A stretch of DNA of 4,227 nt from a virus (lineage: Duplodnaviria; Heunggongvirae; Uroviricota; Caudoviricetes): IMG/VR virus record IMGVR_UViG_2547132488_000021, positions 1 to 4,227 of that record, one strand, 5' to 3'. The notes under the pieces were generated by a model. It searched no databases. It saw nothing but the letters and a program-made list of their open reading frames with translations, and was not told the DNA's origin. The position numbers were made by a program, and so were the translations under genes. Of this stretch, positions 1 to 4,227 are shown piece by piece. Numbering within the stretch: position 1 is the stretch's first letter; every line of letters starts with the position of its first letter.

Positions 1-416
1 TTAGCCCCTGTGCTTTTCAAACATCCAAACAGAAATACTCCAAATTGTTTTTCAGAAGAAAATGCAGAGAGACATGTAAAAGCAATAGACTCATCAAAAA
101 TTTCTATGTATTCAGCACAGTGATTAGCCCAACTAATTAATCCTTTAATTAAACTGAAGTCAGCAAAGTTTATTTTTAAATAAGATGGATATTCCCTACA
201 ATCAGAAATATCCCTTAAGTTATTAGCTTTCAAATAGCGACTAATAAACTCAGCGCCAAAATCCGCCACTATCACTCTTTCAGGATATGTCAGGAAAAAA
301 TCTCTAGAGCTAGAGTCGACAAGTACAGATGAACCTCTCTCCAGAAACACACTCTCTTTTCCGAAATAAACATCAAAGGACTCCAAAATCAATATAACTG
401 AACATGTAGTTGCCAT
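1..416 (-). CDS. Hypothetical protein, N-terminal part only (gene continues beyond the left window edge); function unknown
   Basis: My own translation of the minus strand: ATG at 416..414, then an uninterrupted frame of about 138 codons down to position 3 with no stop (MATTCSVILILESFDVYFGKESVFLERGSSVLVDSSSRDFFLTYPERVIVADFGAEF...). The frame is open back to a stop at 468..470. An open frame this long in very AT-rich DNA is unlikely by chance. A GGGCGGA purine-rich stretch lies a few nt upstream of the ATG on the minus strand. Absent from the supplied ORF track, presumably because its stop is outside the window. No family recognised. Confidence 0.45.
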   Translation of the reverse strand, partial: MATTCSVILILESFDVYFGKESVFLERGSSVLVDSSSRDFFLTYPERVIVADFGAEFISRYLKANNLRDISDCREYPSYLKINFADFSLIKGLISWANHCAEYIEIFDESIAFTCLSAFSSEKQFGVFLFGCLKSTGA

Positions 417-997
417 ATCATCCGCCCAATTTAACTGAAACCAGGATGAAGTATATGTATATAAAGTTCACTTTGCCAAACTTCAATATAAAAAACCACT
501 AAAAATAGGGTGTGATAAAAAATACCGTAACAATAAAGCAAAGGATTATAAATTCCGTTACAGTTACAAATGATACTCAAGAAACAATTCCTTAGGAAAA
601 ACTTATTTACAGCCAATAAGTAAGACACTTATATGATATCAAGTTTTCATAAAACATAACTAGGCTAAATAGCTGCGCCTAATACCGCTACACTTTTGCC
701 AGCCCATGTTTGCCTCCGGGTATTGACCCCTTCTCTACGCAACTTCAGTTCCCACCACCAACTTTGCGGCAGCTTTGTAGGATCAATGTCTAAAAGAATA
801 ATGGTGACCGATAAGAAAACGACTGAATAACTGCAGATTTTCGCTCGAAACCTTCCTGTCAGATCCATAGCGAATCAAGTGCTGAATGTCACAGTATCGA
901 ACAGAAAACAGTGACGATCTAACCCTTCAAGAATATTCTACGATTGTTCTGTTTAGGAAAAGCAAGGCGGGAAGTCGGGAGATAAGTCATTGATAAA

Positions 998-1026
998 GTG
1001 GCGGAGAGAGGGGGATTTGCCCCCCC
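998..1026 (-). other. tRNA 3'-end-like motif: T-arm-like hairpin, 7 nt, G, CCA; possible decayed attachment-site relic
   Basis: Minus strand reads GGGGG-GGCAAAT-CCCCC-TCTCTCC-G-CCA: a 5-bp G/C stem with a 7-nt loop matching the T-loop consensus at 5 of 7 positions (GG in place of TT), then exactly 7 nt, a discriminator position and CCA at canonical tRNA spacing. No matching 5' acceptor strand or D/anticodon arms upstream, so it is at most an orphan 3' fragment. Confidence 0.3.
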
Positions 1027-1044
1027 GGTAGAGTTGCCCCTACT

Positions 1045-1061
1045 CCGGTTTTCGAGACCGG
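1045..1061. other. Second GC-rich hairpin (CCGGT-TTTCGAG-ACCGG) in the AT-rich spacer
   Basis: Perfect 5-bp stem with a 7-nt loop, 18 bp from the first hairpin. No U-run on either strand, so not a classical intrinsic terminator. Confidence 0.3.
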
Positions 1062-1144
1062 TCCAATCATCAAACGAAACATAAAATTAATTCACATTAT
1101 GAGGAAAAGTATCTTTTTTGTACTATGTAAATTCAAAGACTTAG

Positions 1145-2014
<870 letters not shown>

Positions 2015-2074
2015 GTCTTTAAGTGATAAGCATAAACCGCAGCACGATCTTCTTGCATACGACGTGCTACGGTT

Positions 2075-2629
2075 TCATTTATCTCCGACCGGAAACTTCT
2101 TATACAGTGTCGATATACCAACATCATAGATGATCGCCACCTTTTGGCGAGGAACGCCTGATGCAATTAATCGCCCGGCCTGCGCCCATTGTTCTGGTGT
2201 AAGTTTGGGACGACATCCACCAATTCGTCCCTGTGCGCGAGCTGCTTCCAGTCCAGCTTTTGTTCGTTCAACAATCAGTTCACGCTCCATTTCAGCCAGG
2301 GCACCCATCACATGAAAGAAAAAGCGCCCCATTGGGGTACTGGTATCAATTGAATCCGTCAGACTACGAAAGTTGATGCCTCGTTCGCGCAACTCCTCCA
2401 CCAGCACGACAAGATGCCGCATACTGCGCCCCAGTCGGTCCAGTTTCCAGACCACCAGCGTGTCACCTGCCGATAATGTCCTGAGCAGCTTTTTCAGTCC
2501 TGGTCTGTCGGACTTTGTACCGCTTATCTTGTCTTCAAAAATCAGCTCACATCCTGCACACTCCAGCGCATTACGCTGTAATTCCGTATTCTGGTTATTT
2601 GTTGATACGCGGACATAGCCAATAAGCAT
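2075..2629 (-). CDS. pin: Serine-recombinase DNA invertase, Gin/Pin/Hin/Cin family
   Basis: Translation MLIGYVRVSTNNQNTELQRNALECAGCELIFEDKISG...GDTLVVWKLDRLGRSMRHL...INFRSLTDSIDTSTPMGRFFFHVMGALAEMERELIVERTKAGLEAARAQGRIGG...VAIIYDVGISTLYKKFP has the catalytic serine in the VRVST motif, the resolvase/invertase catalytic core, and a C-terminal helix-turn-helix. Start placed at ATG 2629..2627 (protein begins MLIGY as in known invertases) with AGGGGGA 6 nt upstream; the track's longer ORF from ATG 2665 adds 12 unconserved residues. The symbol is by family analogy, not a verified ortholog. Confidence 0.93.
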   Translation of the reverse strand: MLIGYVRVSTNNQNTELQRNALECAGCELIFEDKISGTKSDRPGLKKLLRTLSAGDTLVVWKLDRLGRSMRHLVVLVEELRERGINFRSLTDSIDTSTPMGRFFFHVMGALAEMERELIVERTKAGLEAARAQGRIGGCRPKLTPEQWAQAGRLIASGVPRQKVAIIYDVGISTLYKKFPVGDK

Positions 2630-2709
2630 GTTAAATCCCCCTGGTAAAAGCAGGAATGATGCCATTTGCTTGTTATTTCTTCATTTTCATAAACGTTGGT
2701 TTGGGAGAA
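2630..2709 (-). promoter_or_regulatory. Invertase leader: ribosome-binding site and probable promoter, overlapping the crossover site
   Basis: Minus-strand sequence upstream of the invertase ATG reads ...TATGAAAATGAAGAAATAACAAGCAAATGGCATCATTCCTGCTTTTACCAGGGGGATTTAAC-ATG. The SD is clear; the -35/-10 hexamers cannot be assigned confidently by eye. Only 54 bp separate the start codon from the crossover site, so promoter elements must overlap or lie within the site. Confidence 0.4.
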
Positions 2710-3063
2710 GCAGCAAAACGGAATGTAGGTAACGGGCAAAACCAAATTCCGGATATGGCGGCGTTTGCCAGTTCACTTTCATCAACGGGTTTTCAAAAAC
2801 TCCCTTCAGGTCTGATTATTCAGTGGGGTATTGTCAGTGGAGCATCAAACTATACGGTGACTTACCCGGTAACATTCCCAAATCGTTCACTTGCGCTGTT
2901 GGCTGTGCCACATACAACGTCGGTGGCTGGTATATCTGCAATGGGAATAGCGAACTGTTCTGATATCAGCAAATCACAGTTCTATATAATTGTTGGCGGT
3001 ATATCTCAGGGAGAAATTGTCAAATATGAAAGGTCCTGTTTTTGGGTAGCAATCGGTGTATAG
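2656..3063 (+). CDS. Tail-fibre variable C-terminal cassette, silent orientation
   Basis: Track ORF ending ...SCFWVAIGV. It shares LIIQWG and the terminal AIGV with the opposite cassette. The functional cassette begins at 2710, just inside the crossover site; the ATG at 2656 lies outside the segment in the invertase leader and is probably fortuitous. No tail-fibre N-terminal constant region is attached in this orientation. Confidence 0.65.
   Translation: MMPFACYFFIFINVGLGEAAKRNVGNGQNQIPDMAAFASSLSSTGFQKLPSGLIIQWGIVSGASNYTVTYPVTFPNRSLALLAVPHTTSVAGISAMGIANCSDISKSQFYIIVGGISQGEIVKYERSCFWVAIGV
2684..2709. repeat. Left recombination crossover site (gix/hix/cix/pix-like, 26 bp) bounding the invertible segment
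   Basis: TTTTCATAAACG-TT-GGTTTGGGAGAA: two imperfect 12-bp half-sites around a 2-bp core, with the AAAC/GGTTT inner pattern of invertase crossover sites as I recall them (for example gix TTCCTGTAAACCGAGGTTTTGGATAA). Its reverse complement starts TTCTCCCAAACCAA, which is exactly the last 14 bp of the window. Confidence 0.7.
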
Positions 3064-3071
3064 GTATATCT

Positions 3072-3467
3072 ATGATTTATTTCTCAAAATCGACTAATGG
3101 TTTTTTCTTTGATGGTATAAACAGCGACATGCCTGCTGACATTGTTGAGATAAGTACAGACTTATACAATGAATTAATTGCCGGACAGCAGGAAGGGGGT
3201 AAATTAATCACGTCAGATGAAAATGGTTTACCGGTACTGAAATCTCCGGCGATTGATTATGTCGCACGTGCTGAAAATCAGCGAATGCAGTTACTTGCTC
3301 ATGCCGATAATGTCACAGCTGACTGGCGGGTGGAGTTAATGCTTGGTGATATCAGCAGTACAGATAAAGAAAAACTATCTGCCTGGATGGACTACAAAAA
3401 AGAAGTAAAAGCCGTCGACACTTCGACGGCTCCTGAGATTAGCTGGCCTGAGTTACCGGAGGTGTAG
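3072..3467 (+). CDS. Tail-fibre assembly protein (Tfa chaperone) paired with the silent cassette
   Basis: MIYFSKSTNGFFFDG...AWMDYKKEVKAVDTSTAPEISWPELPEV: conserved Tfa C-terminal signature (VDTS-AP-I-WP--P). ATG at 3072 has AGGT 6 nt upstream; the track ORF starts at a TTG (3042) overlapping the cassette's end. It starts 9 nt after the cassette stop, consistent with co-expression. Confidence 0.85.
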   Translation: MIYFSKSTNGFFFDGINSDMPADIVEISTDLYNELIAGQQEGGKLITSDENGLPVLKSPAIDYVARAENQRMQLLAHADNVTADWRVELMLGDISSTDKEKLSAWMDYKKEVKAVDTSTAPEISWPELPEV

Positions 3468-3876
3468 GCCATTCAATATCTGGAGCACTGGAGGTATCCA
3501 CCAGTTCCAGTGCGTCCAGGTAATCCAGCCACAAATTATATTGCGCCAGTTCCTCACCTTTCAGACGACCAATAGCCGCTTTACCGGGCCATTGTTTATT
3601 GTTCATGTATTCGTTGGCCTGGTTAAGCAATAATTGCCTTTCTGATTCTGCCTGTTGAATAAGTTCTTCATGTGATGGTGGAGGTATCAGTGCCCATGTG
3701 GGTAATCCATTCTCTCCTGCAACACGAATTTTGCCATCTGGGGGCGTATTTATTGCAAATTCATTATAAACATCATCACTGACAGCCAGAGCATCATCTG
3801 GCCATGAATTTGCATTAATGTAATCATCCTTAAGTGCAGGATTCACAAAAATGTTTAAAGATGGACTATAAAACAT
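3439..3876 (-). CDS. Tail-fibre assembly protein (Tfa chaperone) paired with the cassette in the expressed orientation
   Basis: MFYSPSLNIF...EELIQQAESERQLLLNQANEYM...YNLWLDYLDALELVDTSSAPDIEWPTPPVTQAS: Tfa-family C-terminal signature. ATG at 3876..3874 with a GGGGTG SD-like motif upstream, 1 nt after the stop of the upstream cassette (3878-3880). Confidence 0.88.
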   Translation of the reverse strand: MFYSPSLNIFVNPALKDDYINANSWPDDALAVSDDVYNEFAINTPPDGKIRVAGENGLPTWALIPPPSHEELIQQAESERQLLLNQANEYMNNKQWPGKAAIGRLKGEELAQYNLWLDYLDALELVDTSSAPDIEWPTPPVTQAS

Positions 3877-3877
3877 A

Positions 3878-4227
3878 TTACACCCCTATAGCGATATAAC
3901 GACCTAATACAGCGTTTGCAGCAGTCGCTATGCTTGAAAAACCGCGGAACTGATTTGATGTAATTGCAGAAGCCGACAGGATTCCTGCGCCTGAAGGTGT
4001 ATGCCCCACATGACTAACTATCATTCCATAACATGCTGACGGAAAGGCAAAAGGAAAATCATTAAGATATCCGGCATCTTCACCACCAGACCCACCAAAT
4101 CTCGCCTGCCCCCACTGAATAATCAGTGTTCTCCGGGAACCTGAAATAATTAACGGAATCGTTACATACCCATTCAGACCAATGACACCCGATGCAGTGC
4201 CAGCCAGAGATAATTCTCCCAAACCAA
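3878..4227 (-). CDS. Tail-fibre protein, C-terminal portion (partial; gene continues beyond the right window edge)
   Basis: Minus-strand frame open from the window edge to the stop at 3878..3880; translation ...LGELSLAGTASGVIGLNGYVTIPLIISGSRRTLIIQWGQARFGG...AVLGRYIAIGV. The frame reads through the right crossover half-site as L-G-E, the same residues and phase encoded by the left site on the plus strand (2701-2709). The track's initial M is really a TTG inside the crossover site, not a start. Confidence 0.8.
   Translation of the reverse strand, partial: GLGELSLAGTASGVIGLNGYVTIPLIISGSRRTLIIQWGQARFGGSGGEDAGYLNDFPFAFPSACYGMIVSHVGHTPSGAGILSASAITSNQFRGFSSIATAANAVLGRYIAIGV

Follow-up and report, generated by a model that had tools for sequence, protein, structure and literature searches.

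A probable fossil serU attachment junction carried within an e14-like thrW prophage of Escherichia coli

The DNA considered here is a 4,227-nt stretch of a tailed phage (IMG/VR record IMGVR_UViG_2547132488_000021, positions 1 to 4,227), which we refer to as the window. Between a gene for an AraC-family regulator and a gene for a GIY-YIG nuclease, its minus strand carries a hairpin that resembles the 3′ end of a tRNA. Two questions are raised by this locus: (i) what the tRNA-like fragment is and how it came to lie there; and (ii) whether it marks the end of a prophage. A preliminary description, made from the sequence of the window alone, had suggested a relic attachment site that stems from the 3′ end of a tRNA gene, with the prophage ending near position 1000 and with chance resemblance as the alternative.

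The serU fragment

Sequence comparison identifies the minus strand of 999–1064 as nt 25–90 of serU, the E. coli tRNA-Ser(CGA) gene, and so supplies the tRNA gene with a matching 3′ end for which a search had been proposed. Native serU is a 90-nt gene located between mtfA and yodB, and is called by ARAGORN as tRNA-Ser with anticodon cga. The 66 nt in the window are identical to the native gene except at 1020–1021. The T arm (1026–1010, minus strand, as are all parts of the tRNA) is formed by the stem strands GGGGG (1026–1022) and CCCCC (1014–1010) around the loop GGCAAAT (1021–1015), and is followed by the acceptor 3′ strand TCTCTCC (1009–1003), the discriminator G (1002) and CCA (1001–999). 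The T-arm, acceptor, discriminator and CCA geometry noticed in the preliminary description is therefore exact, position by position. The loop had been described as matching the consensus apart from an initial GG, and this change of TT to GG in fact accounts for the only two differences from the tRNA part of serU. A second hairpin reported 18 bp away is likewise real. It is the anticodon arm, CCGGT-CTCGAAA-ACCGG with anticodon CGA (1061–1045), and the 18 nt between the two hairpins (1044–1027) are the long variable arm of this class II tRNA. The motif is thus a tRNA 3′ end, as proposed, but its extent had been underestimated: the tRNA portion is 66 nt rather than 28, and it is accompanied by arms on both sides, which are described below.

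In a BLAST search of 28 Gb of E. coli sequence (5,426 complete genomes), 73 of 75 positions are identical to serU (97.3%, E = 6e-27), and colinear identity with the native serU locus extends to window position 721, for a total of 344 nt. An E value of this size for 75 nt, within a colinear match of 344 nt, excludes the chance resemblance that the preliminary description had allowed for.

The same description held that the fragment is not a functional tRNA, and we agree. ARAGORN calls no tRNA in the window. In Rfam nothing reaches threshold; a sub-threshold alignment to the tRNA clan (21.5 bits) traces the anticodon, variable and T arms. With the 5′ acceptor strand and the D arm missing, negative scans are to be expected. 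A functional tRNA gene was rejected on two further counts: the cloverleaf is incomplete, with serU identity beginning at nt 25 and unrelated phage-arm DNA upstream, and the conserved T54-Psi55-C56 is replaced, with GGC for TTC at 1021–1019 (minus strand). The best match of the Rfam scan, which was run at a permissive threshold, is to the Plastid-psbl-rps4 3′UTR (1002–1053, plus strand); its 31.8 bits also fall short of the gathering score, 68, and it was rejected as a separate feature, being a cross-match to the antisense of the T and variable arms of tRNA-Ser.

The junction and its native counterparts at serU

Integration at both serU and thrW is well documented (PMC8190617, PMC7545054). For example, O157 Sakai has the compound prophage Sp1/Sp2 at thrW and Sp14 at serU (PMC8190617), and uropathogenic strains carry PAI-serU (PMC7545054). 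A chimeric query that joined the GIY-YIG side of the window to the native DNA downstream of serU retrieved five genomes, MB15 among them, with the full arrangement at serU. The MB15 prophage begins with mtfA, serU, three small genes, an integrase, a xis-like gene and early genes, continues with a P27-type terminase, an HK97 head, a Mu-like tail and an invertible fibre segment, and ends with pinE, GIY-YIG and the orphan serU fragment, followed by yodB and zinT. It belongs to the same prophage family as the window. The three small genes (MB15 8183–10434) are hypothetical; placed after the regenerated serU and before the integrase, they constitute attL-side cargo, owing to which the integrase is 2.4 kb from its own att site. 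A second relevant genome is GPEC1356, in which a lambdoid prophage is resident at native serU.

When MB15 attL and attR are aligned base by base with an unoccupied serU, a core identity block, O, of 68 bp emerges, which is common to attP and attB of MB15-type serU phages and consists of tRNA nt 25–90 plus CT. MB15 attL tracks the unoccupied gene through CCA and two further nucleotides and thereafter diverges into phage DNA, and at MB15 attR the phage arm is joined at tRNA nt 25. In the window, core O occupies 997–1064, nearly the same interval as the 998–1061 of the preliminary description, and matches the 68-bp block of MB15 attL, attR and attB save for two decay substitutions. Next to it, 721–996 on the minus strand corresponds to the 276 bp of chromosome directly downstream of serU (the B′ arm), with 97–99% identity to serU-yodB intergenic DNA of both occupied and unoccupied loci (276–278 bp). 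These 276 bp are bacterial rather than phage DNA, because MB15 attL diverges 2 nt after CCA, whereas attR and the window stay colinear with unoccupied serU. On the other side of the core, 1065–1243 corresponds to the P arm, that is, the phage side of a serU attR, and reaches the start codon of the GIY-YIG gene. The whole of 721–1243 is 94.5% identical to the native serU locus of GPEC1356, where an orphan serU fragment adjoins a phage arm, and the native attR of MB15 is 98.4% identical over the chimeric query.

On these comparisons, 721–1243 has the make-up of an attR-type junction, P-O-B′, and the idea that a tRNA 3′ end gave rise to a relic attachment site is borne out by a serU core, a P arm and a B′ flank. 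The junction has the core, the P arm of a serU lysogen and the first 276 bp of B′. What a working attR would have in addition, namely a partner attL, a cognate integrase and a continuous flank, is absent. A functional attP for serU was considered and rejected, as the DNA 3′ of O is bacterial and the nearest integrases are of the thrW type or, in phage ev099 (see below), lambda Int.

The 5′ strand of the anticodon stem is where core O starts. Among tyrosine integrases that target tRNA genes, a core of this layout marks those whose crossover takes place in the anticodon loop, which is accordingly the probable crossover position for the serU phages as well. In the P arm, a repeat search detected no direct repeats of arm type. 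Homologous serU integrases (58% identity) are present in MB15 and in M00057, which carries an Stx2d prophage at serU. They are ~25% identical to lambda Int; their match to the thrW integrase is limited to a 58-aa stretch with 31% identity.

The junction in thrW prophages and in lambdoid phages

The arrangement in the window differs from that at serU. Positions 1–2709 are 100% identical to E. coli UPEC-245U/190328, and in this genome, as in M7638 (an O157-like genome), WCHEC020031, DAM, UID2309220036 and isolate 68, the serU flank breaks at 721. After 276 bp (721–996) of colinearity with the chromosome, IS630 debris and AraC stand in place of yodB, and all six genomes continue beyond 721 with 55 bp of IS630 debris, the AraC gene and a truncated IS3-family transposase fragment. 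The debris (666–720) is the 3′-terminal piece of a transposase gene of the IS630 family, with 92.7% identity to the transposase gene end on pJNE23-001_1. The illegitimate joint at 720/721, GGGGTCAATA abutting CCCGGAGG, is found in all fossil copies and not at native loci. A 67-aa ORF at 665–868 (minus strand) is a chimera across the joint between serU-downstream DNA and IS630, and is almost certainly not a gene.

The boundary of the element lies elsewhere. A 47–64-nt direct repeat of the 3′ end of thrW (tRNA-Thr) is located 1.08–1.14 kb to the left of the window start in UID2309220036, DAM, M7638 and UPEC-245U/190328, and in UPEC-245U/190328 and WCHEC020031 this repeat, thrW′, directly abuts the core genes yagP-paoD. 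The opposite prophage end consists of proA, thrW and a 372-aa thrW-type integrase. In M7638, WCHEC020031 and UPEC-245U/190328 the order is proA, thrW, int, pinE, GIY-YIG, fossil, AraC, IS3 fragment, thrW′. With thrW and thrW′ as its limits, the element encloses the IS debris and the AraC gene as well as the serU junction. The window itself contains no thrW fragment. A prophage end near 1000, as the preliminary description had it, is thus displaced by the thrW repeat as the real boundary, and its suggestion that the motif might recur as a direct repeat at the other end fails as well: no serU copy was found at the int-proximal end of the prophage in M7638 or WCHEC020031, where thrW is present instead. 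The comparative placement of the boundary that it called for gives a divided answer. In MB15-type genomes the fragment is followed by chromosome, with an intact serU and the integrase at the opposite end; in the window's lineage the limits are thrW and thrW′. The same division applies to the proposal that GIY-YIG is a terminal gene between the invertase and the att site, which holds for MB15 and the four other genomes but not for the window's lineage.

No serU-type integrase is present in the fossil-bearing loci that were fetched (L015, M7638, WCHEC020031 and UPEC-245U/190328). The two-junction fossil was counted in 414 of the 5,426 complete E. coli genomes, with many O157:H7 genomes among the carriers, the criterion being at least 80% of window 600–1190; the chimeric query found intact serU followed by 278 bp and AraC on the chromosome in none of the 5,426. 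We consider it very probable that in the window's lineage the serU junction is a fossil, a relic att site rather than a current prophage boundary.

Past thrW′, M7638 has a P4-like satellite in tandem (7625–18710) with a primase-helicase, Psu, an ogr/delta-like gene and an integrase. The satellite carries ABC-three-component-system genes and corresponds to the Sp1/Sp2 compound of O157 Sakai at thrW.

The same block of DNA occurs in sequenced lambdoid phages. ev099 (Radostvirus), mEp332 and PhiR70_1 contain window 1–1060 with 98.4–98.8% identity, and like the window they have an O-B′-IS630-AraC-IS3 block beside a phage attachment site. The order in ev099 is J, stf, tfa, a small ORF, then the block (serU core, 278 bp, IS630 debris, AraC, IS fragments), then int and xis, which puts the block at the position of lambda's b region. 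The B′/IS630 joint of the three phages is identical to that of the window. They differ from the window in having lambda-like siphovirus structural genes and lambda Int/attP. The integrase of ev099 proves to be lambda Int, scoring 787 bits against PDB lambda integrase entries across all 356 residues, and neither a thrW fragment nor a second serU core is present in ev099 or mEp332. A working attP of thrW or serU type was rejected for these two phages, since the integrase is lambda Int and neither site fragment is near int. The mEp332 record is cut at the point where the lambda attP core is expected to lie, ~85 bp past the int stop.

The P arms of the lambdoid phages also differ from that of the window. 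They depart from it from 1061 onward, and are those of the native serU attR of the M00057 Stx2d prophage and of phage SerU-LTIIb; this M00057-type arm is joined at 1060, as compared with 1064 in the window, and the T loop has the wild-type TT. The O-B′-IS630-AraC-IS3 block is therefore found joined to two different genuine serU-phage arms, and adjoins two unrelated working integration modules, those of thrW and lambda. Both phage types share the end point of the truncated IS3 (M7638 19195 = L007 5195). The GIY-YIG version of the junction occurs in no sequenced phage of the phage collection, and a search around the AraC block for transposon-like terminal repeats, inverted or direct, gave short chance-level matches only.

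The fossil has also decayed. The T-loop substitutions T54/T55 to GG (1020–1021, minus strand) are carried by the window, DAM, M7638 and WCHEC020031, and the loop is still TT in isolate 68 (an otherwise identical fossil), ev099, mEp332, MB15 attR and all live or native copies. UID2309220036 has an additional 1-nt deletion in the same G run of the T loop. In WCHEC020031 an IS1 (20242–21009) lies within the fossil B′, at a point corresponding to window 834–843. From copy comparison, the pattern appears to be that of an unselected remnant, and it argues against a role as tRNA, tRNA-like RNA or a copy that regenerates serU. The IS1 flanks in WCHEC020031 overlap by ~10 bp, which looks like a target-site duplication; the prophage in that genome is largely deleted.

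Origin of the junction

The explanation that best fits the locus, and one in which we have high confidence, is that 721–1243 is the fossil attR of a serU-integrating temperate phage, now an inert passenger in an e14-like thrW prophage, that is, one with an HK97 head, a Mu-like tail and a Pin invertase. Comparison of the loci documents both the ancestral and the present state, and shows that B′ is bacterial, that 720/721 is an illegitimate joint and that a cognate integrase is missing. In the ancestral state the phage integrates at serU, its tyrosine integrase recombining within the 68-bp block; serU is restored at attL, and the displaced 3′ 66 nt stay at attR behind the terminal GIY-YIG gene. 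The path from there to the present state may be reconstructed as follows. In a serU lysogen, attR and a short flank would have been captured into a phage genome, either by aberrant excision as in lambda bio or by an illegitimate recombination of similar effect in which nearby IS and AraC DNA took part. The serU int/xis module would have been lost, and a thrW module acquired by recombination with another phage. Having no function since its capture, the fragment would have been free to mutate in its T loop. A simple one-step excision of the lambda bio kind is insufficient, since B′ is fused to IS debris and AraC, not to yodB; besides excision, the history must include one or more additional deletions or illegitimate joints. 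Among possible capture intermediates, no phage with both the fossil and a serU integrase was found.

The presence of two P arms on one block implies a later exchange at or within O-B′. We infer a single origin for the O-B′-IS630-AraC-IS3 block, with subsequent exchange at or within O-B′ among unrelated phages. The same product would be expected whether an integrase acted at the core or RecA-dependent recombination took place within the 344 bp of identity with a native attR, and the SNPs in O-B′ include too few informative sites to tell which fossil type is older or where crossovers took place.

The exchange bears on a more active reading of the junction, in which it is a live, portable att joint, so that co-resident serU-type integrases could swap terminal cargo or rearrange the chromosome. 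The MB15/GPEC and M00057/LT-IIb P arms do meet one and the same block at the edge of O (1064 and 1060, respectively), serU-integrating phages are common in E. coli (PMC8190617), and the T-loop mutations, being inside O and outside the presumed anticodon-loop crossover, have no bearing on the matter. Against this reading, the locus lacks both the P′ arm and the cognate int/xis, homologous recombination with a native attR in the 344 bp of O-B′ identity would give the same products, and no recombination products were directly observed. Lambda Int is able to recombine non-canonical att pairs, a point in favour of a live joint. We regard this reading as unlikely, although not negligible, and attach the same low expectation to its corollary, that the fossil serU attR is the exchange point by which AraC and IS-debris cargo moves between lambda-like siphovirus and e14-like myovirus lineages. 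If that were true, orphan att sites would be portable recombination joints linking three integration specificities (serU, thrW and lambda attB).

Alternatively, two serU phages could have made independent captures from a chromosome in which serU, 278 bp, IS630, AraC and IS3 stood natively in series. Such a history would account for two P arms on one flank with no exchange at O, and the IS debris does suggest a decayed chromosomal IS cluster. It is nevertheless improbable: an intact serU followed by the block is present in 0 of 5,426 complete E. coli genomes, and the shared end point of the truncated IS3 would rarely be reproduced by two independent excisions. Both observations make independent captures less parsimonious than one origin with exchange.

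That the fragment is simply the current attR, with a boundary near 1000 and an intact tRNA at the other end, is exactly true of MB15-type genomes, and the fragment does have all three parts of an attR. For the window's lineage this view is refuted by the synteny described above, as read from the genome sequences, and we give it hardly any credence. The serU flank halts at 721, beyond which lie IS630 debris and an AraC gene that also occur in phage virions; the window does not come from a genome in which 1–720 leads on to yodB-zinT; thrW and its 3′ repeat bound the element in UPEC-245U/190328, M7638 and WCHEC020031; and both a serU copy at the int-proximal end and a serU-type integrase are missing in the loci concerned.

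The divergent intergenic position and the stable hairpins might also suggest a coincidental likeness, or else an RNA with a regulatory or tRNA-like function in the promoter region between the divergent AraC and GIY-YIG genes. This is the least credible explanation of all, given the serU match already described, the missing 5′ third of the tRNA, the mutated invariant T-loop bases with an indel in another lineage, and Rfam scores below threshold for every family.

Comparison with known systems, and the neighbouring genes

Orphan 3′ duplications of integration targets are known at prophage ends in K-12, for example icdC (e14) and ptwF (the thrW pseudo-tRNA of CP4-6). As in e14 and CP4-6, the junction has a displaced 3′ copy of the target at attR beside terminal cargo, which is mcrA in e14 and the PD-T4-3 GIY-YIG gene here, and in MB15-type genomes the fragment is exactly such an orphan duplication at a prophage end. 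The window copy departs from this pattern in being partnerless and ~2.1 kb inside a prophage that is bounded by another tRNA gene, thrW.

For the capture of attR together with flanking DNA, the paradigm is provided by lambda bio-type transducing phages, which arise by aberrant excision in the Campbell model. The likeness is that of a phage genome with attR (P-O-B′) and bacterial DNA beyond it, in replacement of the phage's own int/xis side. The differences are that 276 bp of the flank are left, fused to IS debris and AraC, and that a new thrW or lambda module is present. Moreover, lambda bio phages are laboratory variants, whereas the window arrangement is natural and widespread, occurring in isolated phages as well as in the 414 genomes.

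The closest relatives of the junction are the serU elements themselves. Sp14 (PMC8190617), SerU-LTIIb (KU052038), the M00057 Stx2d prophage and PAI-serU (PMC7545054) use the same attB, and these serU prophages and islands have, like the window, the same 62–66-nt orphan serU fragment starting from the anticodon stem. All four are live serU junctions with an integrase beside the regenerated tRNA gene; the window copy, by comparison, has been moved to the thrW region, where no cognate integrase accompanies it. In a literature search, which was not exhaustive, we found no description of a complete attR of one tRNA gene inside phages that use other sites.

The window fragment is a clear trace of the shuffling of phage modules, but an ordinary one, and reveals no new mechanism or class of element. 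Its interest is that it provides a natural case, resolved to the base, of something that is usually postulated: the capture of an att junction with host flank, followed by reshuffling as prophage-end cargo. There is also a practical side. Callers of prophage boundaries that rely on tRNA repeats would end the prophage ~2.1 kb early and wrongly drop the AraC regulator, and the decoy serU fragment is present in ~8% of complete E. coli genomes, with many O157:H7 among them.

The AraC-family regulator gene is cut by the window start, its 5′ part occupying 1–416 (minus strand). The full protein has 247 aa (Pfam HTH_AraC/HTH_18, phrog_1450), and the gene is annotated in all matching genomes and in ev099, mEp332 and PhiR70_1. 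With IS debris on either side, it is carried as cargo both in e14-like thrW prophages and in phages with lambda integrase.

The GIY-YIG nuclease gene (1241–2014, plus strand) belongs to the PD-T4-3 defence family. Its product matches PADLOC PD-T4-3 PDLC04031 with E = 4.5e-140 (residues 1–256 of 257 against positions 1–255 of 256), and is assigned to Pfam PF22945 LEM-3_GIY-YIG and phrog_5356. The gene is always the final one before the serU phage arm, and in MB15 is the last gene before attR. By sequence it is predicted to be defence cargo at a prophage end, and to have been terminal cargo of the ancestral serU prophage. The analogy with mcrA of e14, drawn in the preliminary description, is strengthened by this full-length match to an anti-phage defence family.

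Beyond it lies a DNA invertase gene (2075–2629, minus strand), which is annotated as pinE in all matching genomes. The Pin-invertible tail-fibre segment (2696–4227) is delimited by crossover repeats at 2696–2709 and 4214–4227, which are perfect 14-nt inverted repeats. Relative to UPEC-245U/190328 the segment is inverted, with 2691–4227 being 99.9% identical in the opposite orientation, and the two sequences thus offer a direct snapshot of phase inversion. The end of the window falls within the right crossover repeat.
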